30,022 nt of DNA from Elainellaceae cyanobacterium. GTDB taxonomy: Bacteria; Cyanobacteriota; Cyanobacteriia; CAZCXK01. Each line of letters starts with the position of its first letter. The stretch's first letter is position 1. The stretch is from the NCBI GenBank assembly GCA_051117555.1, contig JBNPEG010000180.1, positions 1 to 30,022 on the forward strand. The letters run 5' to 3'. Shown piece after piece: positions 4,303 to 23,601 of this stretch. The translations under genes were made by a program, and so were the position numbers. The notes under the pieces are model-generated. The model ran no database searches. It was given only the letters and a program-made list of their open reading frames with translations, and had not been told where the DNA came from.

Positions 4303-5151
4303 TTACGCTTTCCCGGATAGAAAACCAACTAAATTTTGGATAAATGATTGGCTAATTTGACTGTCATGGGCTTGAGATGAGGCAAGTTCTACTACCTCAG
4401 ATTTGGTTTCTATGGAGGGTGCAGTAGCAATGAGCGGCATTTCTTCTGCTAGACCTGACACCATAAGCCGAAAGGCAATTTGCTGGACTTTTTCGGTGGG
4501 TAGTTGAAGCTGTTGGGCGATCGCATTCAATGACACCGTTCCATCTGTAAATTCCCAGACCTGCCATTCAGCTTGATTGAGCCGCAGTTGAGGTTTGCCG
4601 TCGATGGCGCTGATTAGCGCTGAGGTGGGCTGAGGTAGCTTGTCGGCTAGGGCAGACCAGTTTTTGAGTGCGCGCAATCCCGCTAACGTCACTTCTGTCG
4701 CGGGTGCACTCAACCCCGTCATCTCAGAGGAGGGAAGCGGTGCTTTGGGGTCAAACTGAAACCATCCATCATCGAGCGTGAACAACGCACAGATTTGCTG
4801 CATCACTTGTGAATAGAATAGAAGCTTGAGCTGCTCTGCACTCAGCACCCCTTGAGATTTGAGATGTAAGCCTGCTGGGGTATTTTCCGTGCGCGACTGA
4901 GCAAGACGAGATGCAGCGCGATCGCCCATCCAGCCGCGTTGACTGATTAATCGAAGTAAGCCCTGCTGATCGAGAGTATTCGCAGCCGCAACAATACGGC
5001 CTTGATTAAACCAAACGTGATGGTTTCGCTTTTTGTCCGAGCCTGCTTCTCCTAGCGCACAGATAGTCAGTAAGCCAATTTTGCTGCCTTGCTCCAAAAA
5101 CTGAAATAGCTCTGCTAGAGTGAATTCTGCTAAGTAACCTGTAATAGCCAT
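4303..5151 (-). CDS. DUF4388 (PATAN-like) domain protein with C-terminal wHTH-like segment
   Basis: N-terminal GYLAEFTLAELFQFLEQGSKIGLLTI, VWFNQGRIVAA and LDDGWFQF match DUF4388. LNQAEWQVW..TDGTVSLNAIAQQL..VQQIAFRLMVSGL resembles a winged helix. Confidence 0.8.
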   Translation of the reverse strand: MAITGYLAEFTLAELFQFLEQGSKIGLLTICALGEAGSDKKRNHHVWFNQGRIVAAANTLDQQGLLRLISQRGWMGDRAASRLAQSRTENTPAGLHLKSQGVLSAEQLKLLFYSQVMQQICALFTLDDGWFQFDPKAPLPSSEMTGLSAPATEVTLAGLRALKNWSALADKLPQPTSALISAIDGKPQLRLNQAEWQVWEFTDGTVSLNAIAQQLQLPTEKVQQIAFRLMVSGLAEEMPLIATAPSIETKSEVVELASSQAHDSQISQSFIQNLVGFLSGKA

Positions 5152-5271
5152 GATGAATCCTTATAAATTAATGGTGTGGTTGCAACTAAACTGTGTTTGT
5201 GTCTAGTGTGTTGCGTTTCTAAAATGCCTGATATTGAAAGCTGGAGTGATGACGTGATGGTAGAGAGAAGG

Positions 5272-5811
5272 TCACACAAAGCATCCTTGCGTAGAGTGCT
5301 CGACCAATTTGATGATAGCTCTTGCAACAGACGAAGCATCCGTTGGGTTAACCTGAATCATGGGAGGGCACTTCGATGAATTCAAATAGCCAAGCGCAAT
5401 ACTAATATTTTCAGGCTCCCATGCGTCCTCGCAATCGACGTGGGTTAACCCAATGATCATCGGAACGTGCGATCGCTGTTTCATAAATGTCAGGATGCGA
5501 CGGGCATACCGAAACTCACCGGGGCGATGCGCTGCGACTAGTAGCACGTAGGCATGGGCTTTGCGGATGAGAATGTCCCACATGAAATCAAAACGCGATT
5601 GCCCAGGAGTTCCATACAAATGAAGAGCCATATCAGGACCAAATTGCAGCCGTCCAAAGTCAAGAGCCACCGTCGTTTTTTTCTTTAAATAGAGTGTTTC
5701 ATCCGTCGCTCTGCAATCGGTATCCACAACCTCGATTTCACTAACTGAGCGGATAAAGGTAGACTTCCCGGCACCTACAGGGCCGGTCACTACTAAGCGC
5801 ATGATTTCCAT
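5272..5811 (-). CDS. Small Ras-like GTPase, MglA/CvnD-like (ATP/GTP-binding protein)
   Basis: G1 GPVGAGKS, switch I TTVALDFG, G3 LYGTPGQSRF and G4-like THVD. Start set at the ATG at 5811 (MEIMRL). Confidence 0.9.
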   Translation of the reverse strand: MEIMRLVVTGPVGAGKSTFIRSVSEIEVVDTDCRATDETLYLKKKTTVALDFGRLQFGPDMALHLYGTPGQSRFDFMWDILIRKAHAYVLLVAAHRPGEFRYARRILTFMKQRSHVPMIIGLTHVDCEDAWEPENISIALGYLNSSKCPPMIQVNPTDASSVARAIIKLVEHSTQGCFV

Positions 5812-5889
5812 ACTAGATGCCAAGCAAGTAATCGTTATTGCCAATAAATTAGTTATTGAAAGTCATCCATCTGTGGGAATTTGGGCGAC

Positions 5890-5919
5890 AACCTATACGT
5901 CCTGGTAGTGTTATGTCAA
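5890..5919 (-). promoter_or_regulatory. Candidate internal sigma70-type promoter for GTPase-DUF4388
   Basis: Minus strand reads TTGACA-N18-TAGGTT (perfect -35, TANNNT -10), about 80 nt upstream of the GTPase ATG. Confidence 0.4.
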
Positions 5920-6129
5920 TCAGTTGCGTAGGTCTATTAGATAGTAGATATCACGGTATTGCTGATTCCAGGAATGATGATTGAAAGGGCAAAGCTACAT
6001 CACCGTATGAGGCGTTATACCAATTCGCAAATCAGAGTTGCGCAAACCGTGAAAACCACTCAGCGACCCCACTTACCCATCCCACATCCGACATCCAAAA
6101 TCGGAAATTGGTATGACTGCTATCTAAAT

Positions 6130-6173
6130 GAATTCTACGGATAGAATTCTACAGATAGAATTCTACGGATAGA
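6130..6173. repeat. 14-bp tandem repeat x3 (GAATTCTAC(G/A)GATA)
   Basis: Units at 6130, 6144 and 6158, with one substitution in the middle unit. Confidence 0.95.
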
Positions 6174-6182
6174 GTGGATCGC

Positions 6183-6554
6183 TCATATCAAAGCATTTTT
6201 CAGCTCTGACAAAGCACGCTTGATTTCTAACATCAGCAATCCTTGCTTTGCTGCTTGGTTCGCCAAAACCAAGAAAACTGCATCCTCACCGCAACTCGTT
6301 AATACACCATATCCTTGATTGCCTTCTACAAAAATTCGATCGATGGTGCCCCTGGCAAGTTCATTACCGATGCGTTCTCCCAATGAAAGCATTGCTGCCG
6401 ACATCGCAGATACCCTTTCTTCATCCATTGCGCCGGGTAGACTTGCCGCTAGAGGTAACCCATCTGGAGTAACGACGGCTGCTCCTTGAACATCATTAGT
6501 AGACGTCACAAAGTTTTGCAGAATGCTGGTTAATTTTTCAGTGCTAATTGCCAT
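6183..6554 (-). CDS. Roadblock/LC7 (MglB-like) protein
   Basis: VQGAAVVTPDGLPLAS-type motif, ERVSAMSAAMLSLGERIGNEL, IFVEGNQGY and GLLMLEIKR. 123 aa, next to an MglA-like GTPase. Confidence 0.92.
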   Translation of the reverse strand: MAISTEKLTSILQNFVTSTNDVQGAAVVTPDGLPLAASLPGAMDEERVSAMSAAMLSLGERIGNELARGTIDRIFVEGNQGYGVLTSCGEDAVFLVLANQAAKQGLLMLEIKRALSELKNALI

Positions 6555-6627
6555 GATTGTTCCTTGTCAGAGTGAGAAATGAGAGGAGATATCAAATAGA
6601 AAAGGGGATTGAATACCTAACGAGACA

Positions 6628-7182
6628 TTACATCGCATTGGCGCCAGTGGTGATCAGTCGCCTAAAGAGATTCTCAGTCCACCCTGTTTCTCGTAAAACC
6701 GCAGAGGATGAAATCTCAATATAGGCTTGTTCAATGAATGCCAAATCAATCATGCAAATTTTGCTGAGCGCATCGCGAACTGCTTCATCTTTGCCGTCTG
6801 TGTGCGATCGCTTGCTGACTTCATGAACGACTGTCGCCATTGCTGGAACGACATGCTGAGGACCAATGCCGATGCGGACATGAATAATGCCAATCTTCCA
6901 ACGGCACTCAGCGTAAGCATCGCTCCAGTCATCAATACCAGTAAACATTTCATGAAACCATTGAACAAACGTTTCTCTGAGCCGATGAATTCGTCCTTCA
7001 GAGGCATTGAGAATGGCGCTCATTTCTTCGTCTCGCCCCATGTAAGCATAAAAGTGATCTGCCATGTCAGGGGCAATGAGCAACCCCCAATCCGCATTTG
7101 CTTTTAGTATTGCTTTCTCGTCTGCGTTAAAGTTCGTCCGAAATGACATTTTAGTCATGAAAGAATGCGGCTCTAGTGCCAT
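6628..7182 (-). CDS. Single-domain sensor globin (protoglobin/HemAT-like sensor domain)
   Basis: B-helix ADHFYAYM (B10 Tyr), F-helix KIGIIHVRIGI (proximal His) and ALSKICMIDL. An AGGAG ribosome-binding site sits 9 nt before the ATG at 7182. The ORF track starts at 7215. Confidence 0.87.
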   Translation of the reverse strand: MALEPHSFMTKMSFRTNFNADEKAILKANADWGLLIAPDMADHFYAYMGRDEEMSAILNASEGRIHRLRETFVQWFHEMFTGIDDWSDAYAECRWKIGIIHVRIGIGPQHVVPAMATVVHEVSKRSHTDGKDEAVRDALSKICMIDLAFIEQAYIEISSSAVLRETGWTENLFRRLITTGANAM

Positions 7183-8260
7183 GTGAACATGCTCCTTTTG
7201 AGGAAATTGGGTCATTCATGCTCACTGTTGTAACAGCTCAATCGATACGTTTAACATCGAATGAATACGTAAATTAAAAGTTGAGCGTTTCGGCTGAATT
7301 GATTAACAATCCTCGATACATTGTTCACTAAACTTGACAGAAAATCCTCGAAAATGACGAACTTACACAAAGTATTGTTAAGTTTCATCAACCCAAATCC
7401 AGACACATTGCTTAATCTAAACAGCATAATTTAAGCTGATTCTCTGGTTCGCGACAGAAAAAGATATGCGTGATTAGCCGAATCTGGCTCCAGGTAAGGA
7501 TTGCAAATTTAACAATTTTAATATTGTTATATGTAGTTGGATTGGCTGATTTTCAATACGCCAATCCAAACAGGTGATCGTCTGTCCACCGCTTAATGAT
7601 TTGTTAATGATCGATTGGATGTCTAGAAAATTAACTTTTTTGTCAGTTGGTTTCAATTAATTTCAACCCTATGTTGTTTTGTATCTAATAGAGTTCGTAT
7701 ATTCACGAGTAATTTTGTATACGTTTCTTAAAATTCCGCCCTTAATTCTTCCCTTGGAGATCCTATCCGGGGGTGCGGCAAAGACCTCCACAGGGGATAA
7801 AACCTCTCTACTCAACCTGAATACCCTCTGCTAGTGAGAAACCAATCGCTCTGAGAATCCAATCGTTTGCAATTAAACCCAAATTTGTTGTGCTATGTAA
7901 AAAACTTTGGGGTATGAGGGTCAAACTTTATAAAATAAGAAGTGGAAGGGTTATTCGCTATGTCACGACTATTTGTCTAGATCAAATCTGAACTCTTCTG
8001 TAGCTGTATAGCTTGTAAATTTCGCGTACATACAAAGACGTTGAACTGCAAGGTGATAGGCGAAACATAAGGATATCAATCGGTTCATGAATATCGATTA
8101 GGGGATTTAGAGCTGAGATGCGATCGCTTCAGCTAATCAATCATTCTGCAATTTTTCAATAATTCACCTATGCTTTAAATTCAACTGATATAAATTCTAT
8201 CAATATGAAAACTTAGAGATATTTTGTTGTTAGTGTCATCTAGCTAAAGACATAGTTTCT

Positions 8261-8290
8261 AAAGCATATTAAAGCATATTAAAGCATATT
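8261..8290. repeat. 10-bp tandem repeat x3 (AAAGCATATT)
   Basis: Three exact units 41 nt upstream of the PRC-barrel gene start. Confidence 0.95.
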
Positions 8291-8331
8291 GGCTTAATTA
8301 TTGACCTTACTTTTTAACCGGAGATGAGCAA

Positions 8332-9105
8332 ATGAATAGACCACAATCCTTAGTTAAACAAAGCGAATTGCCTGATCGACTGGTTCTCGACTGCAAAACG
8401 ACTGAAGAATTGGGACGAGTTGATGAATTGTGGCTTGATCCCCATGCTCATGAGGTTAGAGGGCTGACCAGCCAGACAGGATTTTGGAACAAGAAAACCC
8501 GCGCATTTATGTGGGAGCGGATTAAAACCATTGGCAAAGACAGCATATTGGTAGACAGTGAAGGGATTGAAACACCTGTCAAGAAACCTGAAGGCGTTAA
8601 GCCCATCATCGGCCACGAGCTGTGGACTGATGCAGGCAGTAAAGCCGGTCACATCGTTGACTACCTGATTGATCCAGAGACTGGCAAGATTGCTTACTAT
8701 CTGTTTCGTTCAGATGGCTGGAGTGGTCTTATGGACGGCATTTATGCATTGTCACCCGCTGCCATTTCGAGCATTGGAAGTAAACGTCTTATCGCAGACG
8801 ATACTGCGGTTCGTGAGAGTGAGAAGTATGCCGAAGGGTTAGAACAGAAACTGCACGCTGCCCAAGAATTCTTGAAGCAGGATTTAGAAAAAACTAAAGA
8901 CGATTGGGACGTTGCCCAGCAAAAGGGGCAGGCGATCGCCGAGCAGGTCAAGGAAAAGACTCAAACCGTCACCGAACAACTTAAAGACTCGTTGGCTCAA
9001 TCAGATTCGTCCCCGGACGCGACGCCATCATCGGATAACGATTCCGAATCCGATACAGCAGCGGCATCCGATACAGCCGATGAGCGGAAAACGAGTAACG
9101 TCTAG
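8332..9105 (+). CDS. PRC-barrel domain protein (two PRC barrels plus helical/acidic tail)
   Basis: LVLDCKTTEELGRVDELWLDP...IKTIGKDSILV and ELWTDAGSKAGHIVDYLIDPETGKI...ISSIGSKRLI are tandem PRC-barrel patterns. Confidence 0.82.
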   Translation: MNRPQSLVKQSELPDRLVLDCKTTEELGRVDELWLDPHAHEVRGLTSQTGFWNKKTRAFMWERIKTIGKDSILVDSEGIETPVKKPEGVKPIIGHELWTDAGSKAGHIVDYLIDPETGKIAYYLFRSDGWSGLMDGIYALSPAAISSIGSKRLIADDTAVRESEKYAEGLEQKLHAAQEFLKQDLEKTKDDWDVAQQKGQAIAEQVKEKTQTVTEQLKDSLAQSDSSPDATPSSDNDSESDTAAASDTADERKTSNV

Positions 9106-15440: not shown

Positions 15441-18194
15441 ATGCGGACAGTTTTCATCCGGGCTCATTCCCATGACTGGGTGCGCCAGTGGCTAAAGGAA
15501 ACGCTCACCGAGAAAGCTAACTTTCAACCGCTCAACATCATCACCCCGAATCGCCTTGCTGCCCGTGCATTGGGAATCCCGAAGCGATCGCTCGCTGACC
15601 TGGCTCGGGAGATGTTGGCAAGCCATGATCTCCATATCGTTCCAGCTCTAACGGCTCAACGGCTTCTGCGAGACGCGATTCGTCAGACCATCCATCCGGC
15701 TGATTTAGACGGTACGACTCGCACGTGGACATCAGCCATCAAGGCGTTACTTCAATCTTCCGCAGTTCTTAAGATGCCTGACGTTCCAATCTCAGCGAGG
15801 GCATCTCAGCTGATTCAGGTCGCCCAGACCTATCAAACGTTGCTGCGTCAATACGGATGGGTAGATTCGAGCGAACTCCTGTGGCGATCGCTCGATTATC
15901 ATCCAAGCTCGTTGCCACTATTTGTGTATGGCTATGGTCAACCCACTGCCGATGAACTAGCGTTTATCAATGCGATCGCTGGCGAGGACAGCGTTTATAT
16001 GTTGCCCTGTGTTCAACATTCTGACTTTGCGGATATCGATACTGCAATCCAGATGTTAGAAGCGGCGGGTTGGCAGATTGACCAGACCGAACCCATTAGC
16101 CAGTCAAACTCGGTGGGCAACCAGCTCTCCTGCCGTTTTGTCAGCAATGATAATTCTATTACTAATGATAATTCTACTACTGTCAATACGTGCTCCGTTT
16201 ATGCCTACGGAACCCTAGAAGCGGAGGTGCGGGGCACGCTGGCACACGTGAAGCAACTCCTGATTCAAGGCGTTTCGGCACGAGATATCGGCATTATTGT
16301 GCGGGATGAAGTGGCGTATGGAGAAAAGCTTCTTGACATTGCCTGGGAATATGACATTCCCCTGCGAGTGCTCTATAACGTGCCCCTTAGCACGACCCGG
16401 CTAGGGGGGTGGATCAATCTGCTGCTGGATGTAATAGAAAATCAGTTCTCGTTTGAGAATACCGCAACGCTGCTGAGCCATCCTTTATGTAGCAATCCTG
16501 ATAGAGAATTTTGGAGTGTCGTGCGCGATCGCCATCCCAGTAGTTTTGATGCCTGGAATGATGTCAGTCAGGAGATTTTAGACATTGATCTGTCGGCATT
16601 TCGATTGCCCAATCATGCAAAGCGCAAAACCTGGGTCGAGCGAATCCAGACCATTCTCACGGTCGTTGATCTCCGTAGACGATGTGCCCGCTGGGCTCGT
16701 GAAAGCTTGGCCTTGAGTAAGCTAGAGCAGTCATTATATGAGCTATATCAACCGCACGATGAACCGCTTTCACGCACCGAGTTTTTTCAAGACCTGCGCG
16801 ATGTGATGGCGATCGCCCAGGTGGCTGCCCATCCCAGACGAGGCGGCGTTGAACTGCATTCACCCACTTCTGTCATCGGTGCCCAATACAGCCATCTGTT
16901 CATTATGGGGATGGCAGAGGGCGTTCTGCCAAAGATCGTGCAGAATGACGGGGTGCTCGACTTTTTCGAGCGCAAGGCTCTTCGCGCAGCAGGAATTGTG
17001 CTGCTCTCTGCGGCAGAGCAGACCCGGCGTGAATCCCTCGCTTTCTATCATGTGCTGCTGACTGCCATAACCCACATCGTCTGTTCATATCCCAAACTGG
17101 TAAATCGGCAAGAACAATTGCACAGTCCCTATCTAGACCGATTAGGACTGTCTGTCTCCCCAAGTCCTGAGCGTCCGATTGCGAGCCGTGAAGAATTGCG
17201 AAAGGTCATGCTACGTCATGAGGTTCAGGACGAGGATGAGGATGAAGTACTCGCCCATGCGCGTCATGCCTGGAAGGTTGAGCGACGGCGGGAAAGTAGC
17301 GCCCCCTATGACGCCTATGATGGCGTCACGGGCATTCCGGTGAATTGGACGAATCATTCATCGGAGGGAGTTGGCCAACGCGCCTTCAGCGTATCTCAAC
17401 TCACGAACCTAGGGCTTTGTCCATTCAAGTGGTTTGCCGATAAAGTGCTCATGCTGGGTGAACCCGACGACGTCGAAGACCAACTGAGCCCCAGTTTGCG
17501 GGGCAGTCTTTATCACAAAGCATTAGAGCTCCTGTTCGATGAAGTGACAGAAAATCCAGATTTAAAGGTGACCGATTTCCATCTACTGCAAACAGTGTTT
17601 AAACGCGCTGAAACAGACCTCCAGCTTCCCGCATTTCCAAACTGGGCGGCTCAGCGAAACGAACACCTCAAGACGCTGAGCCTAGCCATTCAACAGCCTG
17701 ATTTTTTCCCAGATGGGGCAGAGGCGATCGCCCTTGAAGAAGAATTTACAGGCAACTGGCATGGCTTCCAAATTCGTGGACGGGTGGATCGTATCGATCG
17801 TACTGATGACGGACTCCTCCTCATTGACTACAAAACAAGTTCATCTGCACCCAAAGGAGTCAGCAATGCTGACGGTAAAGCCTGCATCGACCTGCAACTA
17901 TCGATTTACAAAGACGTTGCAGCTCCAGCGCTCTTCCCCGGTGAACGAGTTACAAATGCCTACTACTACTCGCTGACGAAAGGTAAGAAACTGAAGGATC
18001 TCAGCAAGTTACCCACTCAAGATGAACTTGCAGATGTCGCAGAGCGGTGTCAGTCCCATCTCAACAACGGATACTTTCCTGTGAGCCCCGATACCGGGCG
18101 TGACGCATGCAAATACTGCGCCTATGACCTGGTTTGCCGTCAAGGCAATCGTCTCAGCCGGAAACCCCGTACTGCACCCACGGAGGAGTCATGA
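15441..18194 (+). CDS. AddB-like protein: inactive helicase-like N-terminus plus Fe-S PD-(D/E)XK nuclease
   Basis: IITPN, LFIMGMAEGVLP, SVSQL..CPFKWF, RGSLYHKALE, RGRVDRID...IDYKT, QLSIY and CKYCAYDLVC (1+3 Cys iron-staple pattern). Coupled to a UvrD-type gene. Confidence 0.88.
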   Translation: MRTVFIRAHSHDWVRQWLKETLTEKANFQPLNIITPNRLAARALGIPKRSLADLAREMLASHDLHIVPALTAQRLLRDAIRQTIHPADLDGTTRTWTSAIKALLQSSAVLKMPDVPISARASQLIQVAQTYQTLLRQYGWVDSSELLWRSLDYHPSSLPLFVYGYGQPTADELAFINAIAGEDSVYMLPCVQHSDFADIDTAIQMLEAAGWQIDQTEPISQSNSVGNQLSCRFVSNDNSITNDNSTTVNTCSVYAYGTLEAEVRGTLAHVKQLLIQGVSARDIGIIVRDEVAYGEKLLDIAWEYDIPLRVLYNVPLSTTRLGGWINLLLDVIENQFSFENTATLLSHPLCSNPDREFWSVVRDRHPSSFDAWNDVSQEILDIDLSAFRLPNHAKRKTWVERIQTILTVVDLRRRCARWARESLALSKLEQSLYELYQPHDEPLSRTEFFQDLRDVMAIAQVAAHPRRGGVELHSPTSVIGAQYSHLFIMGMAEGVLPKIVQNDGVLDFFERKALRAAGIVLLSAAEQTRRESLAFYHVLLTAITHIVCSYPKLVNRQEQLHSPYLDRLGLSVSPSPERPIASREELRKVMLRHEVQDEDEDEVLAHARHAWKVERRRESSAPYDAYDGVTGIPVNWTNHSSEGVGQRAFSVSQLTNLGLCPFKWFADKVLMLGEPDDVEDQLSPSLRGSLYHKALELLFDEVTENPDLKVTDFHLLQTVFKRAETDLQLPAFPNWAAQRNEHLKTLSLAIQQPDFFPDGAEAIALEEEFTGNWHGFQIRGRVDRIDRTDDGLLLIDYKTSSSAPKGVSNADGKACIDLQLSIYKDVAAPALFPGERVTNAYYYSLTKGKKLKDLSKLPTQDELADVAERCQSHLNNGYFPVSPDTGRDACKYCAYDLVCRQGNRLSRKPRTAPTEES
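16146..16181. repeat. In-frame 18-bp tandem duplication in the addB-like gene (NDNSIT NDNSTT)
   Basis: AATGATAATTCTATTACT followed by AATGATAATTCTACTACT. Confidence 0.9.
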
Positions 18195-20041
18195 ATTCAA
18201 CCCCGACCCCCCTCACACCTCAGCAACAGGATGCTGCTTACACTACCCACAGCATTGCCGTGACTGCTGGAGCCGGAACGGGTAAAACCCACATGCTAGC
18301 AGAACGCTACTTGCATCACCTGATGTCTGGCTATTCTCCATTAGAAATAGTGGCGCTGACCTTTACGGAAAAAGCTGCTACCGAGATGCGATCGCGCATT
18401 CGCAAAACAATCCAGAACAGAATCCAAAATCCAGATTGGATTGCAGAATTGGACGCAGCTCAGATCAGCACCTTTCATGCCCTCGCTGCTCGGATTTGCC
18501 GGGATCATCCTGAAACCGCTAATGTTCCACCTGACTTTACTGTGCTAGATGACCTAGACGGAACGCTATGGACGGCAAACGCTCTCGTTGACGCATTGCA
18601 TCATATTCCCGACGCGCTCTACGAGTATGTCCCATATTCTCTGATGCAAACAGCGATCCGGACATTTCTAGTTGATCCGTTAGCTGCAGAACACGCATTG
18701 CAGAAAGGGCGCAATGATTGGTTGCCCATCCTTCAACAGACTCAGCACGAGGCGTTAGCCACCCTACTACATGACGATCGGTGGTTAGTTGCAGGTGATA
18801 TCTTGCACGCTCACTCTGCCCCTAATGACAAGTTAAACGAAATGCGGGATGCCGCATTAGAATCGGTGGCATTTTTAGTCGGAGAGCGGACTACTATTCT
18901 TGAGTATGGTGATGACATTACTTCGGTTCTCAACGTCCTTAATGGATTGAAAATAAACTGCGGGCGGCAGAAAAATTGGGGCGGCAAAGATACGCTTGAT
19001 GCTGTCAAGGATGCCATCAAACTTGTGAGAGAACTAGCGCGAGATGCCCTCAAAGCAGGTTTGGTGACACTCAATCCCAATGAATGGGATGACCAGACCG
19101 AGGCAATCCTTCCAGTCCTGCGGGAAGGATTTGAAGTCGTGCGATCGCACCTCCACCACGCTAAGCGACAGCAGCGAGTCCTCGACTTCAACGATCTAGA
19201 AATCCATGCCCTCAGAGCTCTCGAACAGCCGGATGTGCAAAACTACTACGCTCAACGCTGGCAAGTATTTCTGATTGACGAGTTTCAAGATACAAATCCC
19301 ATTCAAGGCCAACTGCTTGAACGACTCACCCAAGGCAAATTGCTGACTATCGTTGGCGACGTTAAACAATCGATTTATGGCTTTCGTCGAGCTGATGTAG
19401 AGGTATTTAAAGCGTGGTGTAATCGACTCCATCCAACGCCAGATCGTCCTATTAAAGAACTCAGCCTCAGCTTTCGGACTCACCACACTCTTGTTCAAAA
19501 GCTTAACGCTGTCTTTGAGCCAATTTTGAATCCCCTGCACCAACCGCTAGAAGCGTATCGCCAGCAAGAACCGTTCCCGTCTCCCTACTTGCAGGTGTTT
19601 ACTGTTCGCGTCACAGACAGTACAAAATCCGATATTGGACAGCGCCGTCGCGTGGAGGCAAATCACCTGGCGAACTGGGTCACCGATCTGCTAGCCAACG
19701 GTGCCCAGGTGCATGACAAATCAACCGGGACTCTTCGTCCTGTTACACCCGGAGATATTGCAATTCTCTCTCGCACTTGGGACCCCCTAGACGTTTATGG
19801 CGAAGCCCTAGAAGGGTTGGGGATTCCTATCCTGCAAGTGGGAGGTGGCAACCTGCTCGACACCCGTGAAGCAAAAGATGCCTGGGCACTACTGCGGTTT
19901 TTGGTAGATCCGAGAGACGATTTAGCGCTCATTGCGGTATTGCGGAGTCCGTTCTGTGCCGTGAGCGATCGCCCCGTCTATTACAAGCCTCTTTCCTCGA
20001 AGAGGATAACGACGAGCTTTAAACGATCTGTAAAAGACTAA
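18191..20041 (+). pseudogene. AddA-like UvrD/SF1 helicase, 3'-truncated
   Basis: GGAGGAG RBS and ATGA overlap with addB. Motifs present: Q (LTPQQ), I (AGAGTGKT), Ia (TFTEKAA), II (DEFQDT), III (VGDVKQSIYGFRRA), IV and IVa (IAILSR). Motifs V and VI and the C-terminal nuclease are absent. Recognisable sequence ends at RSPFCAVSDR (about 19972). Confidence 0.8.
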
Positions 20042-20175
20042 TATCAGTAGTTTTAGAGAATGAAAGTCCCCATTCATACCTGACATAATTTCTGCTATCT
20101 TACAGATTTAATTCTGATGATGAAATTTGGTAGCGTAGGATATATTTGTGGATATAAACCTAATAGATCCCTTTT

Positions 20176-22176
20176 ATGAGAAATTTATTTGGAACCATTG
20201 GAAGATTTATTCTTATCGGTTCTGCTGCCTTTGGAATTGCCTCTTATGCAAACTTACGCCATTACGAAAGCTATTGGAATGGTACTATCAGGCGAGTTCA
20301 AACAGTAGACTTCAATATGTTATCTCACATGCTACCCACCAAACTTTCCCAGGCTTTGATTGAAGGTGATGAGCAAGAGATACAACGAACACTCGACAGT
20401 AACTATGGGCTATTCGGTCTGGTTGTTACTGATTGTAAGACAGTCCAACCTGACTGTTTTAACCAGCAAATTCAACGTGTCTCCAACTCTAATCTGCTTT
20501 GGAGAGATTTACTGAATGAAGATAATTTAGCCACTTCTACCTATGACGTGCTAAGAGATCCACCACCACTCTATGCAGAAGGTAGCTATGATAGCTCTCG
20601 CGATCATATTCGTAATGCCACAGGATTGAATAATTCTGGCAGAATCATTGGCCGAGTTTATTACGTGCGAGGAGTTCCACCTACATTCCTAGGCTCCTAT
20701 TTACAGTGGATACTGAGCTGGCCGAAGAGCTTCTTGAGTGACAGCGGTGCGAATAGATACTATGCCCTGACTACTATACTTTTTGGCGCTGGTGGGCTTT
20801 GGACATGGATCTTTGTAGAATCAATCCACTCCAAACACCGGCATCAGGAGCGGCAAGCTAAGGCAAAACAAGAGCAGTTGCAGGCAGAACAGGAAAATCT
20901 CGTATTGGAAGCTCAGATCTTGCGTCAACAGCTTCAAGAAAAATTCACTGAAAATTTACAACTCATTGAGGAACGCAATCAGAATCTAGCTGATTTGCAA
21001 GCTGCCCAGTCTCGACAGCAGAAGCGAGAGTTTGAACTTCAGTCTAGTCTTCAAAATCTACAGAGTCGGCTATCTGCTCAGGATCAAGTAAACTCCAAAG
21101 AAAAGCAGCGACAGATTGAGCTGCAAAATATTATTCAGCAGAAGCAGCGAGAAGCAGAATTACTGCGGGAGAAAATGATTGCTCTACAGGCTCAACAACC
21201 AGAGAAAGAGCAAGAAAGACAGCAGCTTCAGAAAAAAATTGCTGACCTCCAGAGAGAGCAGCAAACCAAGCACAAGCGACTAGAACAACATGTCGCCGAA
21301 TTAGATGAGCTATGGCAAGAATTGAGTATACAATCTGCCGAAAGGGAAGAGAAGGCCAAACTGGCAGAACTGCTATCTCAAGAAGTTGAGGAGGCAAAGC
21401 GCCAGCAGCGCGAAGCGCTTCAGCAAAAAGAGAACCTTCAAAAATCCATTGAGCAACTCTCTCAAGAGAGTCGAAGAGATAAACAAAGGCTGAATGCTCT
21501 GGAGAGCCAAATTAAAGACGGAAAGCAACAAGTAAATGAGCTTAAATCTGTCATTAGCGATGTAAGTCGGAGATCTCTCAATCATTTTGAAAGAGCCATT
21601 ATTCAGGTTTTAGAAGATAGCTCAAAGGTCAAATCTTTGGCTTGGTTAATACTACCTCAACTAGATGTAAGTGAGAGCGGTAGAAATAGCAGCAGCAAGG
21701 TTACCGACTGTGTTTTGATTGGAAAGTCTTTTGTCGTGGTGGTCGAAGCCAAAAACTATCTTGGCAAAATTCAATCATTAGGAGATGTTAAGCGCACTTC
21801 CTGGCAAGTATCTAGCGACGGAAATAAAGGAATGGAGATAGGCAGTTGCTGGGGAAATAATCCTTATCAGCAGGTCGATAGCTACACGAAAAGTGTTATG
21901 AAGATAATCCAGGATAAGCTGCCTTGGAATAAAAATATTACTCATAACAAGGTTTCTTGTTATGGAGTGGTTGTGTTTCCTGATAATGCTGATTTGACAA
22001 TGTTAGACACCGATTTAGGTAGTTATTACAGGATTACAAACTTAAGCAGTTTGCTAGACGTCATTCATAAACTAGAACGTCAAGCGCAGCAACAGTCTCG
22101 GTCAGGTCACAAAAGTTTATCTCCTCAGGAAATAGAGGCATATCTGTGTGGTAAACCTCTGCCAAAGTCGGCTTAA
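20176..22176 (+). CDS. Membrane-anchored coiled-coil protein with C-terminal NERD (PD-(D/E)XK-like) nuclease domain
   Basis: Hydrophobic segments at about aa 9-25 and 195-214, Q/E/K heptads at about aa 220-465, then NHFE...DCVLIGKSFVVVVEAKNYLG...NNPYQQV...GVVVFP typical of NERD. Confidence 0.8.
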   Translation: MRNLFGTIGRFILIGSAAFGIASYANLRHYESYWNGTIRRVQTVDFNMLSHMLPTKLSQALIEGDEQEIQRTLDSNYGLFGLVVTDCKTVQPDCFNQQIQRVSNSNLLWRDLLNEDNLATSTYDVLRDPPPLYAEGSYDSSRDHIRNATGLNNSGRIIGRVYYVRGVPPTFLGSYLQWILSWPKSFLSDSGANRYYALTTILFGAGGLWTWIFVESIHSKHRHQERQAKAKQEQLQAEQENLVLEAQILRQQLQEKFTENLQLIEERNQNLADLQAAQSRQQKREFELQSSLQNLQSRLSAQDQVNSKEKQRQIELQNIIQQKQREAELLREKMIALQAQQPEKEQERQQLQKKIADLQREQQTKHKRLEQHVAELDELWQELSIQSAEREEKAKLAELLSQEVEEAKRQQREALQQKENLQKSIEQLSQESRRDKQRLNALESQIKDGKQQVNELKSVISDVSRRSLNHFERAIIQVLEDSSKVKSLAWLILPQLDVSESGRNSSSKVTDCVLIGKSFVVVVEAKNYLGKIQSLGDVKRTSWQVSSDGNKGMEIGSCWGNNPYQQVDSYTKSVMKIIQDKLPWNKNITHNKVSCYGVVVFPDNADLTMLDTDLGSYYRITNLSSLLDVIHKLERQAQQQSRSGHKSLSPQEIEAYLCGKPLPKSA

Positions 22177-22493
22177 GGATCGGTCGTAGAAAGTTGAGGT
22201 TGAGGTTGAGCTAGCGGTTTTAGTCCGCAACACGAGTATCGAAAAGTATGATGTCTTCTTAAGTGAGGAACTGCTCTGCTGGAATTATGCATCTAGCAAC
22301 CTTGACATTCAAGGCGCATGGCAGACTCTGCACCAAATTATCAAATGACAAGCATAGTTTTTGTCCAAGAGCCAACAAATTAGTAGACTGCTTCTAGCTC
22401 TGATGTTTGTCTTACAGGCAATCAACGCCAAAACCCAACGTCTCTATGAGAAACAACTAACATCATGAGCAAAAAAGCGACAAGCTTCGTTAT

Positions 22494-22527
22494 CGTTGGG
22501 TTTCGCTCTGCTCAACACCAACCTACA
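22494..22527 (-). repeat. GTAG-type REP/SDR-like palindrome
   Basis: Minus strand reads TGTAGGTTGGTGTTGAGCAGAGCGAAACCCAACG. An inverted partial copy AAACCCAACG lies at 22431-22440. Confidence 0.65.
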
Positions 22528-22593
22528 GAATCCTACACTTTTAGGCTGATAGACTCACGCTGATTTCGGCGCTTTGCGATGACGTCCAACCCC

Positions 22594-23601
22594 TTAGATA
22601 GAAACAGCCACCTTCGATAGATTCTCTTCCCACTTACGCGGTGGACTTGCGCGGCGAATATTCCGCCAAATTTGCGTTGCCGCTAAGGTTCCATCCGCAA
22701 CTGCGACCGAGACTTGGTTCACACCTTGCTTCAAGTCGCCTAAGGCAAAAATGCGATCGTGGGTTGTTTTTGCCATATCATCCGTGATCAGATTTTCACC
22801 CTTCCATTCCAGTCCTTGAATCCCCTTCAAGTAGTGATTGTGGTAGATCGATCCCATATTCACTAACCCTGTAGTGGCTTCAACAAGGGTGCCATCAGCA
22901 AGCTCCACCCCGCTCATCTGATGATTTTCTCCTAGGAATCGGGTAATCGGAGCTTCGTAGAGCGGATATCCGTGATCGGCCAGCTTCTGTTTCATCTCAT
23001 TGCCGACGGTGCAAAGTCCATGGGTCAACACTGAAATGTATGGAGTAAACCAGTTCAATACAAATGCTGCATTGATTTGAGATTCCGATCCTGCAATCAA
23101 GACTGCCTTTTGATCCCACATGTCAAACCCATCACAGATCATGCAAACGTGGAGAGTATATCCTGCATAATCATAGACATTTTGCATGTTGTCTAACTGG
23201 GGCAATACATCGATGACTCCAGATGCAGCAATCAGATACTTACTGCGAAAGACTGGATAGATGCTTTCTTTCTTGCCTACTTTTGCTCGTACAGCAAAAG
23301 TTTCGCCCTCATCAACCACATCTTCAACGTACCCGTAGAGGTAGTCTCCTCCCCAGTCCATCACTTGCTTAGCTCCATGGCTCAAGATATTTCGCCCGGG
23401 AGTATCTGGGTCAAATCCTACGTAGTTGCGCAAATCTTGCATCCAGAGCGATCGCCCTCTACCCTTCTCGATCACCAGGCACTTAAGACCATAGCGAGCT
23501 AGATAGATTGCGGCAGAAAGCCCACCCATGCCACCACCCACAACGATGGCATCATAGAGAGTATCGAGGCGTTCGTCGAGATTTTTACTAGAAAGTTTCA
23601 T
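22594..23601 (-). CDS. Thioredoxin-reductase-like flavoprotein, probably DDOR (diflavin-linked disulfide oxidoreductase, Synechocystis Slr0600-like)
   Basis: FAD motif VGGGMGGLSAA, redox CMICDG and RIFALGD. The NADPH glycine motif is degenerate (LIAGSESQINAA). Closely resembles Slr0600 as recalled, not aligned. Confidence 0.85.
   Translation of the reverse strand: MKLSSKNLDERLDTLYDAIVVGGGMGGLSAAIYLARYGLKCLVIEKGRGRSLWMQDLRNYVGFDPDTPGRNILSHGAKQVMDWGGDYLYGYVEDVVDEGETFAVRAKVGKKESIYPVFRSKYLIAASGVIDVLPQLDNMQNVYDYAGYTLHVCMICDGFDMWDQKAVLIAGSESQINAAFVLNWFTPYISVLTHGLCTVGNEMKQKLADHGYPLYEAPITRFLGENHQMSGVELADGTLVEATTGLVNMGSIYHNHYLKGIQGLEWKGENLITDDMAKTTHDRIFALGDLKQGVNQVSVAVADGTLAATQIWRNIRRASPPRKWEENLSKVAVSI

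Follow-up and report, generated by a model that had tools for sequence, protein, structure and literature searches.

What does a cyanobacterium do with a nuclease that appears to be wired, through its own membrane, to a domain on the far side? The question is raised by a gene on contig JBNPEG010000180.1 of an Elainellaceae cyanobacterium (NCBI GenBank assembly GCA_051117555.1), of which positions 1 to 30,022 of the forward strand were analysed as one stretch, hereafter the window. An intact open reading frame (ORF) at 20176..22176 on the plus strand encodes a protein of 666 residues, in which two hydrophobic segments enclose a sensor-like domain and are followed by a long coiled coil and a C-terminal NERD domain (Table 1). 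An earlier note, made from the DNA letters alone, had described a receptor-like nuclease. The analysis reported here favours, on balance, a single-chain sensor in the envelope that activates a nuclease in the cytoplasm, with a role in defence or genetic conflict. The case builds on domain order, fold models, an intact catalytic set, repeated swaps of the output end and a patchy, mobile spread.

A Kyte-Doolittle scan of the protein found two segments above 1.4 over 19 residues, at residues 4-24 and 196-216, here called transmembrane (TM) segments TM1 and TM2. The coiled-coil part (residues 222-465, 244 residues) holds a single proline and a single glycine, and Q, E, L, K, R and A make up 75% of it. 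Its heptad contrast is 0.41 vs 0.264 +/- 0.031 (maximum 0.38) in 200 shuffles. A hairpin built on a conserved proline break in mid-coil was considered and rejected, as proline is missing there in most relatives. Pfam found no HAMP, HisKA, HATPase_c or MCP signalling domain in the protein, and PHROGs gave no match to it. The receptor layout proposed in the earlier note, TM-sensor-TM-coiled coil, was borne out: the paralogues that share the sensor include true histidine kinases, encoded beside a response regulator. The motifs it quoted, DCKTVQPDC (within TDCKTVQPDC, with C87 and C94), GLFGLVVTD and IIGRVYYVRG, all lie in the sensor.

The C-terminal end carries the only Pfam domain of the protein. 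NERD (PF08378) matches residues 471-602 with E 1.8e-9 and 38.5 bits, against a gathering cut-off of 22.1. In alignment A1, the catalytic residues are near-universal, with D511 kept in 66, E524 in 65, K526 in 64 and E472 in 65 of the 66 NERD-type rows, so that the claim of an intact D511, E524 and K526 holds. An AlphaFold2 model of residues 455-666 reached a predicted local distance difference test (pLDDT) score of 91.8 and ends in a strand and two helices (E164-168, H169-186, H196-204). Foldseek ranked the Shedu nuclease SduA (PDB 8ps5) first against this model (E 4.9e-4, probability 0.99), followed by R.BspD6I and other restriction endonucleases, SfsA, Bax1, Can2 and McrC, with TM-scores that are low throughout (0.2-0.38). 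A PDB sequence search with the NERD part returned chance matches only, and a word search with that part alone found no proteins beyond the sensor family. Judged by its sequence, the window gene is a true NERD-domain protein.

Its substrate may be RNA rather than DNA, because other ends fused to the same sensor are RNases and because ZwsA is reported to cleave phage RNA through equivalent residues. The ZwsA report (bioRxiv 10.64898/2026.04.06.716636) describes a NERD anti-phage RNA endonuclease with E535, D567, E580 and K582 as the mutated residues. The same E...D...ExK layout is present in the window protein (E472, D511, E524, K526), with a D-to-E spacing of 13 in both. ZwsA and SduA are soluble proteins with other accessory domains, whereas the window nuclease would be tethered to a membrane sensor.

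The sensor is the conserved hallmark of the family. Among 65 NERD-type relatives, median identity to the window protein is 55% over the sensor, 37% over the NERD domain and 22% over the coiled coil; over the C-terminal residues 603-666 it is 33%. Invariant residues in alignment A3 are Q42, T43, D45, N47, P54, S58, F80, T85, Y162 and R165. An alignment-based AlphaFold2 model of the domain (pLDDT 86.2, predicted TM-score 0.79) runs through H2-39, H42-52, E57-61, E75-78, short helices, E98-104, E132-140 and H147-156. This is the topology of a PDC domain, with a long N-terminal helix, a central antiparallel sheet, flanking helices and a C-terminal helix. VIA-align, run against 48,161 representative chains, returned 20 matches to the model at Z >= 5; none of them reached Z 8, below which a match may mean shared arrangement alone. 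Judged by their entry titles, about 45 of the top 50 rows are sensor domains from the periplasmic or extracellular side of kinases, chemoreceptors and cyclic di-GMP receptors. The best are the periplasmic domain of a LapD orthologue (Z 7.6) and LuxQ (Z 6.8). Further matches, with Z down to 5, include a PAS-type kinase sensor, CitA, CusS, WalK, DctB and many chemoreceptor Cache domains.

Because all Z values stay below 8, a PDC/Cache-like fold is called likely on the strength of the model, and homology of the sensor to any named family is left unshown; the likeness is one of modelled fold. The Cache/PDC fold guessed in the earlier note thus agrees with the model and the VIA-align matches, but is not matched by Pfam or Foldseek. 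A PDB sequence-profile search with the sensor gave chance matches only. Two look-ups in the ESM Atlas returned sCache, CHASE, GAPES and LapD_MoxY_N clusters at 0.87-0.93, which serve as leads only. One further row in that resource is a cluster of 524-residue NERD proteins, mostly from Thermodesulfobacteriota, whose predicted N-terminal part is sensor-like (TM-score 0.61-0.63). From this model-based likeness, the sensor-NERD layout may also occur outside Cyanobacteria.

The sensor is flanked by the two hydrophobic segments in the window protein, a placement read from hydropathy only, and follows a TM helix in CHAT-nSTAND1 proteins. Its cysteines at positions 87 and 94 behave as a pair: among the 60 sensors in A3, both are present in 33, both are missing in 27 and a single one occurs in 0. 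This all-or-none pattern fits a disulfide in an oxidising compartment, and from the alignment the two residues probably form one. Melainabacteria are not known to have thylakoids. The periplasm, rather than the thylakoid lumen, is the likely site, since the sensor also occurs in these non-photosynthetic relatives.

The same sensor is found with many different outputs. In a first protein search, its N-terminal half had already turned up fused to HicA or DUF2325-like ends. Pfam on 71 family ORFs, drawn from 80 genome loci with 9 lost to a motif filter, gave NERD in 29, HicA in 7, DUF2325 in 3 (below cut-off), HATPase_c in 3 and nothing in 29, the last being mainly short melainabacterial forms and fragments. 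A wider view came from the 150 best representatives at 50% identity, for which the last 190 residues were clustered and exemplars run through Pfam. The main classes are NERD (at least 28), fragments (21), DUF2325-like (20) and histidine kinase (16), followed by an unassigned class A (12), a second HicA-like class with no Pfam match (9), HicA (8), an unassigned class B (5), a coiled-coil-only group (4) and Gp49/HigB (3, E 1e-17). There are also four pairs (weakly YoeB/ParE-like, weakly Card1-endonuclease-like, weakly DUF2293 and one matchless) and 16 singletons, including YoeB (E 1e-26) and Schlafen AlbA_2 (E 2e-11). Class A had been read by eye as RelE-like, a reading left unsupported by a PDB sequence search that gave chance matches only. 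The DUF2325-like class likewise gave only chance matches to PDB sequences.

Several of these classes bear on how the sensor is used. The kinase-type members have a G1 box in 15 of 16, an H-box-like motif in 4/4 inspected and a response-regulator gene at +1 in 3/3 genome loci. In three CHAT-nSTAND1 proteins (P0162, P0179 and the fragment P0128) the sensor forms the C-terminal end, directly after a TM helix. As both kinases and a STAND-CHAT switch use it, the sensor is best regarded as an input module. The HicA-type genes have no adjoining antitoxin gene, which suggests that HicA is controlled in cis. Melainabacterial members lack an enzymatic end altogether and consist of sensor and coiled coil only (373-455 residues).

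Effector swaps on one N-terminus had been put forward in advance as a sign to look for among homologues, and they proved real and repeated, with NERD, HicA, kinase and other ends. On an IQ-TREE sensor tree of 114 complete representatives, the 14 output classes require 42 changes. A FastTree tree of 209 rows requires 48 changes, vs a minimum of 111 in 200 label shuffles. The approximately unbiased (AU) test rejected a single clade for the NERD-type rows (log-likelihood difference 157, p 0.00018) and for the kinase-type rows (p 0.0024). The exact number of swaps is uncertain, because about 150 columns underlie the trees and many of the branchings are weakly supported. From these sequence comparisons, however, repeated exchange of the output on a constant sensor is not in doubt.

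The family defined by this sensor is, from the searches, small and patchy within Cyanobacteria and Melainabacteria. Searched against 1.84 billion representative proteins, a sensor profile gave 260 clusters at E <= 0.001, of which 231 were at <= 1e-10; in one-per-species genomes it found 102 loci, spread over many cyanobacterial orders and Melainabacteria/Obscuribacterales. In a sample of the phylum, the sensor is present in 16/401 genomes and 12/155 genera. The full-length protein as query matched 5/41 relatives, and found nothing in two genomes of the same genus (61% and 99% complete) or in a genome of the same family. No second copy of the sensor was found in the window's own genome, and INPHARED phage records gave no family match. 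The sCache_4 domain, sought for a comparison profile, occurred in 0/201 cyanobacterial genomes.

Mobile elements carry several members. A family member is present on 8 plasmid records, with one copy on a conjugative Nostoc plasmid. In four Leptolyngbya/Nodosilinea loci, a prophage head module carries a NERD-type gene, with the portal gene on one side and the scaffold gene on the other. The module itself, at L010:4414-12271 and also at L011, L012 and L014, comprises terS, terL, portal, scaffold and major head genes (PHROGs on L010, and neighbour clusters). A Synechococcus elongatus IITB3 plasmid (L090:1389-10675) carries a member with a RelE/ParE-like end, in a block with genes for a thermonuclease, an N6 DNA methylase, Swt1-HEPN, HEPN, a GIY-YIG nuclease and a DEAD/DEAH helicase.

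Neighbouring genes were sampled by crude ORF calling around the 71 family genes, with three neighbours per side clustered; Pfam was run on 146 of the 193 cluster representatives, the 47 left out being mostly melainabacterial. A PADLOC-model match lies within 3 ORFs in 16 cyanobacterial loci, a count that is a description rather than an enrichment and comes without control neighbourhoods. Among these matches, NERD+UvrD helicase genes occur at 7 loci; they come right after the family gene in the closest relatives, L007 and L009, and also follow it at L041. Other matches are type IIG restriction-modification with DEDDh, DrmMI with a DpdE/DrmD-like helicase, and DrmB with DrmC (DISARM-like), as well as HKD+Snf2, GmrSD-like, a PD-T4-6-like kinase, WYL, Cas3, Cas8 and a type II methylase. 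In Melainabacteria (L066-L086, e.g. L080:7848-12513), a gene for a 1111-residue SNF2_assoc+SNF2 helicase follows an effector-less member at 15 loci, and its core matches the DpdE and ZorD models. A serine/threonine kinase (STK_OB model) is encoded 2-3 genes upstream of melainabacterial members at 7 loci. The defence company looked for among homologues is partly there: 16 loci with PADLOC neighbours, plasmids and a prophage speak for it, but relatives elsewhere sit in housekeeping synteny.

At the window's own site, the gene forms a single-gene insert that comprises the gene, 133 bp upstream and 418 bp downstream, with a GC content of 0.423 vs 0.488 for the genome. The comparison is with another genome of the same genus, G002, which matches the window at 84-91% identity (blastn) over 15549-19972 and from 22595 onward. 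In G002, rmuC abuts a thioredoxin-reductase-like gene and there is no counterpart of window 20043-22594. A further 2465 bp of G002 are missing in the window: the final 1.46 kb of addA and almost the whole of rmuC, whose G002 product matches PF02646 at E 6.7e-104. The joint of this deletion is an 11-nt repeat that bears HIP1 and is found at both G002 sites. The assembly holds the missing addA/rmuC segment nowhere else and has no other copy of addA or rmuC. The rearrangement junction claimed in the earlier note is thus confirmed against G002, as an insert plus a 2465-bp loss at an 11-nt HIP1 repeat.

Three soil-metagenome DNA runs from one study also hold the window stretch, with contigs that cover the gene at >= 99%. 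Contigs from runs X1 and X3 continue, at 19962 and 19972, into sequence that matches the undeleted addA/rmuC of G002, and no contig shown spans the addA-rmuC deletion. The deletion is a variant within the population or else an artefact of assembly; either way, the insertion stands. Horizontal acquisition, which the earlier note thought probable, fits what was found: G002 lacks the gene at the same site, 16/401 genomes carry the family, and there are plasmid and prophage copies. The absence of HIP1 over 2 kb is real and extends further, with no site in 19965-23448 and none in the insert, where about 3.8 would be expected at genome density. As a mark of foreign origin it is weak, however, because a gap this long arises as the largest in 33% of random placements; the chance of a HIP1-free insert of 2552 bp is 0.04 at window density. 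The borders of the insert have no terminal repeats, tRNA or Rfam match, and promoter and terminator scans gave no mark of a mobile element.

On the 3' side, the gene faces convergent thioredoxin-reductase-like and peroxiredoxin genes, with Fur and others beyond. A 34-nt element in the 3' flank (22494-22527) has two extra genomic copies, at C11:34987-35018 and C47:2522-2555. The same flank holds a 10-nt inverted repeat (22431-40 / 22494-503). Elsewhere in the window (4303-7215, minus strand, and 7000-8500), a string of genes for DUF4388, ATP_bind_1 small-GTPase-like, Roadblock/LC7 and protoglobin proteins adjoins a GC trough (0.37-0.39).

Table 1. Features of the receptor-like NERD gene and of its insertion site in the window.
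Feature	Position	Strand	Basis or remark
Receptor-like NERD protein gene	20176..22176	+	Homologues over full length at 51-56% identity
TM1, residues 4-24	20185..20247	+	Hydropathy 1.67 over 19 residues
Extracytoplasmic sensor domain (putative), residues 25-195	20248..20760	+	Alignment A3; PDC/Cache-like model; conserved hallmark of the family
Cys87...Cys94 pair	20434..20457	+	Alignment A3, 60 rows
TM2, residues 196-216	20761..20823	+	Hydropathy 1.44; a K/R/H-rich stretch comes next
Coiled coil, residues 222-465	20839..21570	+	Composition, heptad periodicity, weak SMC coiled-coil matches
NERD domain, residues 471-602, PD-(D/E)XK fold	21586..21981	+	Pfam PF08378, model, Foldseek
Catalytic span: E472 (21589-91), D511 (21706-08), E524 (21745-47), K526 (21751-53)	21589..21753	+	Alignment A1
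C-terminal strand and helices, residues 603-666, packing on the NERD core	21982..22173	+	Model
Single-gene insert, 2552 bp	20043..22594	.	blastn against G002: missing from the matching site of that same-genus genome
Promoter-like hexamer pair	20060..20089	+	Consensus match only; count no higher than in shuffles
rmuC 3'-end remnant	19962..20042	+	First 11 nt (19962-19972, HIP1) are the deletion joint
Truncated addA (UvrD-like helicase)	18134..20041	+	635 residues vs 1145 in G002; neighbour only

How might such a protein work? The model proposed here is inferred as regards topology, dimerisation, direction of signalling, signal, target and role in defence. The N-terminus would lie inside the cell, and TM1 would lead to a disulfide-braced, PDC/Cache-like periplasmic domain. 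TM2 would bring the chain back inside the cell, and there the NERD nuclease of the PD-(D/E)XK type would sit on a long coiled coil, probably a parallel dimer. The periplasmic domain may detect a conserved cue in the envelope or periplasm, or a partner protein. A change there would cross TM2 and the coiled coil and release two nuclease domains from autoinhibition. Once freed, the NERD domains would cut nucleic acid, either DNA or RNA, and the invader would be destroyed or the cell arrested, that is, defence or abortive infection. This sensor-effector reading is favoured because the outputs are known effectors or toxins, because kinases and a STAND-CHAT switch share the sensor, because antitoxin genes are lacking and because the spread is mobile and patchy.

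Known systems resemble the window protein in parts. The nearest in mechanism, by analogy and without a sequence relation, is Zorya (ZorAB with ZorC/ZorD), described as a 5:2 ion-driven motor with a domain that faces the cell wall and with nuclease effectors (bioRxiv 10.1101/2023.12.18.572097). On that description, the two would share an inner-membrane part, an extracytoplasmic domain, a long cytoplasmic coiled-coil tail through which the signal passes, nuclease effectors and a trigger in envelope perturbation. Melainabacterial members, with sensor and coiled coil followed by an SNF2 helicase gene, are similar in layout. However, Zorya as described there has a motor and separate effectors, whereas the window protein is a single chain with two TM segments and no match to ZorA or ZorB. 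In place of the OmpA-like peptidoglycan binder of Zorya, the window protein has a PDC-like sensor by its model, and its effector is fused.

Other comparisons concern single modules. LapD- and LuxQ-type receptors and histidine kinases have a TM-PDC-TM topology, which is also predicted for the window protein, and some paralogues in the family are themselves kinases, but the output in the window protein is a nuclease on a 244-residue coiled coil. STAND NTPases, according to Kaur et al. (eLife 2021, PMC8195603), have variable C-terminal sensor ends, some of them extracellular with TM segments (CHASE2). The CHAT-nSTAND1 proteins described above appear to follow that arrangement and carry the window family's sensor at their C-terminal end. 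The window protein differs in lacking an NTPase switch, its sensor being wired to the effector through the coiled coil.

Only one published passage appears to touch the family. The accessible text of Gerdes (bioRxiv 10.1101/2023.12.08.570793) describes 'Class 14 SMC-HicA' fusions in which a long coiled coil and a well-modelled globular domain are joined to a C-terminal HicA; some Class 14 members have NERD, a defence role is proposed, and the proteins are read as SMC homologues. Class 14 is probably the same family as the HicA-type relatives P0071-P0120, matched here by description. That text does not include the two TM segments, a periplasmic sensor, the other outputs or the neighbours, and literature searches turned up the sensor domain, membrane topology, output range and neighbours in no other source. 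The window protein differs from SMC: NCBIfam gave only sub-threshold SMC coiled-coil matches, and TIGR02168 (SMC) reached 34.9 bits vs a cut-off of 567, confined to the coiled-coil region at residues 219-492, with the ATPase head absent. What appears to be new here is the direct wiring of a putative extracytoplasmic, PDC-like sensor to swappable toxins.

Secreted nucleases, binding proteins and phosphatases recur beside the family. In a string seen at L048:7872-13255 and 15 other Nostocales loci, a sensor-coiled-coil-NERD gene is followed on one strand by a lipoprotein gene and then by a class B acid phosphatase gene; the lipoprotein fuses a PhnD-like Phosphonate-bd domain to a staphylococcal-nuclease (SNase) domain. 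The binding-protein gene alone adjoins kinase-type genes (3/3 loci), stand-alone SNase genes lie near members from other orders, and two plasmid copies have thermonuclease genes nearby. NERD is coupled to a periplasmic module a second time at L037:1753-3834, where a 693-residue NERD + Phosphonate-bd fusion is encoded upstream of a kinase-type member. With custom hidden Markov models, genes for a secreted SNase, a PhnD-like binding protein and a class B acid phosphatase were found at 17, 20 and 12 of 80 family loci (1.07 Mb), vs 0, 1 and 0 in the window's whole 6.06-Mb genome, a comparison that has one genome as control and in which many loci are mutually related. These recurrent genes suggest that the sensor either has a partner in the periplasm or reads nucleic acid or phosphate esters there. 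LapD and LuxQ have PDC domains that bind periplasmic proteins, and their rank as top structural neighbours fits a periplasmic partner.

The same neighbours could equally mean nutrient scavenging. The protein would then recognise nucleic acid, nucleotides or phosphate esters in the periplasm and serve phosphorus scavenging or DNA uptake: its sensor would dock the binding protein or nuclease and signal the presence of substrate, gene regulation would fall to the kinase-type members, and the NERD type would handle incoming DNA at the membrane. We regard this as unlikely, though the recurrent neighbours and the likeness of the sensor to protein-binding PDC domains speak for it. HicA, YoeB, Gp49/HigB and RelE-like toxins and CHAT-STAND proteins carry the same sensor and have no place in uptake, and prophage and defence-gene company does not fit it either. 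Moreover, the loci with these neighbours are mainly related Nostocales and so not independent, and the window's own genome lacks such neighbours, with just one distant, unlinked binding protein, at C146. A membrane-tethered, RmuC-like repair or recombination factor that works with the neighbouring AddAB helicase-nuclease, an alternative raised in the earlier note, has a very low probability and was not upheld. RmuC, too, joins a coiled coil to a PD-(D/E)XK-type nuclease, addB-addA-rmuC immediately precede the gene, with the rmuC remnant closest to it, and NERD+UvrD helicase genes follow three relatives. To our knowledge, however, RmuC has no TM-sensor-TM module, and the window protein gave no match to PF02646, a model that readily found the true RmuC of G002. 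That genome keeps addB-addA-rmuC without the window gene, which is accessory and patchy across the phylum. In relatives, the nuclease is swapped for RNase toxins or kinases, and neighbourhoods are not conserved around repair genes. The least probable of the rivals reverses the direction of control: a NERD end that is inactive or slow would sense foreign nucleic acid in the cytoplasm, and the periplasmic domain would be an output that binds or lets go of a partner such as the thermonuclease, as LapD does with LapG. The best VIA-align match is indeed a LapD-type periplasmic output domain, a periplasmic nuclease or binding-protein gene recurs nearby, and melainabacterial members lack an enzymatic end. 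Yet the top Z values lie within about 1 of those of ordinary outside-in sensors, the NERD catalytic residues are conserved, the swapped ends are effectors elsewhere and the kinase type signals inward. A remainder of probability is assigned to none of these readings.

Several observations weigh against an envelope sensor with a defence role. The window is otherwise a housekeeping region (peptide ABC transport, MTHFR, TrpRS, an ABC exporter, AddB and AddA) and is not a defence island. The Microcoleus HicA-type genes follow rplM-rpsI-rpmE-prfA in conserved synteny at 8 loci, and some other family loci are plainly metabolic. PADLOC-DB 2.0, which includes Zorya, Shedu and Nhi-like NERD+UvrD models, gave 0 families at E <= 0.01 for the window protein. 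The PADLOC count around relatives is descriptive, as noted, and its coverage is given as 148 of the 193 representatives, described as the same 146 less one family-gene HicA fragment, plus 2 added. Support for the sensor fold is middling (Z <= 7.6): at E <= 0.01 the sensor matches no Pfam family, Cache, CHASE and PAS included, and Foldseek of its model against the PDB gave a best E of 0.13 and none <= 0.001. The strong conservation of the sensor differs from fast-evolving sensors that bind phage proteins. The coiled-coil part spans 103-473 residues across 74 NERD-type relatives, and such variable length poorly suits a rigid signalling rod. The nutrient reading of the neighbours also counts here, and no RNA runs are listed as holding the window sequence.

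A broader reading goes beyond the envelope sensor favoured above, and is offered tentatively, as doubtful but worth stating. The sensor would define a group of transmembrane immune receptors in Cyanobacteria and Melainabacteria, a counterpart of pattern recognition, in which the PDC domain reads a danger signal from the envelope. As part of this same tentative proposal, the cue might be periplasmic nucleic acid or nucleotides, read directly or through the thermonuclease or binding protein. The receptor would then fire a NERD nuclease, antitoxin-free RNase toxins, a kinase, a caspase-like CHAT-STAND switch or, in trans, an SNF2 helicase.

How bacteria sense an attack at the envelope, ahead of phage genome expression, is understood in very few systems. 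The present family would offer a simple case, in which a single chain combines a sensor outside the cell with a rod and a toxin inside it, and which comes with natural domain swaps across nuclease, RNase, kinase and STAND outputs. The findings add a sensor domain that lies outside the searched Pfam families and correct the reading of these proteins as SMC homologues. The link to thermonuclease, binding-protein and phosphatase genes points to a testable class of ligands. If the proposed mechanism is true, the family would show how a toxin of the toxin-antitoxin type can be kept in check when no antitoxin is present.

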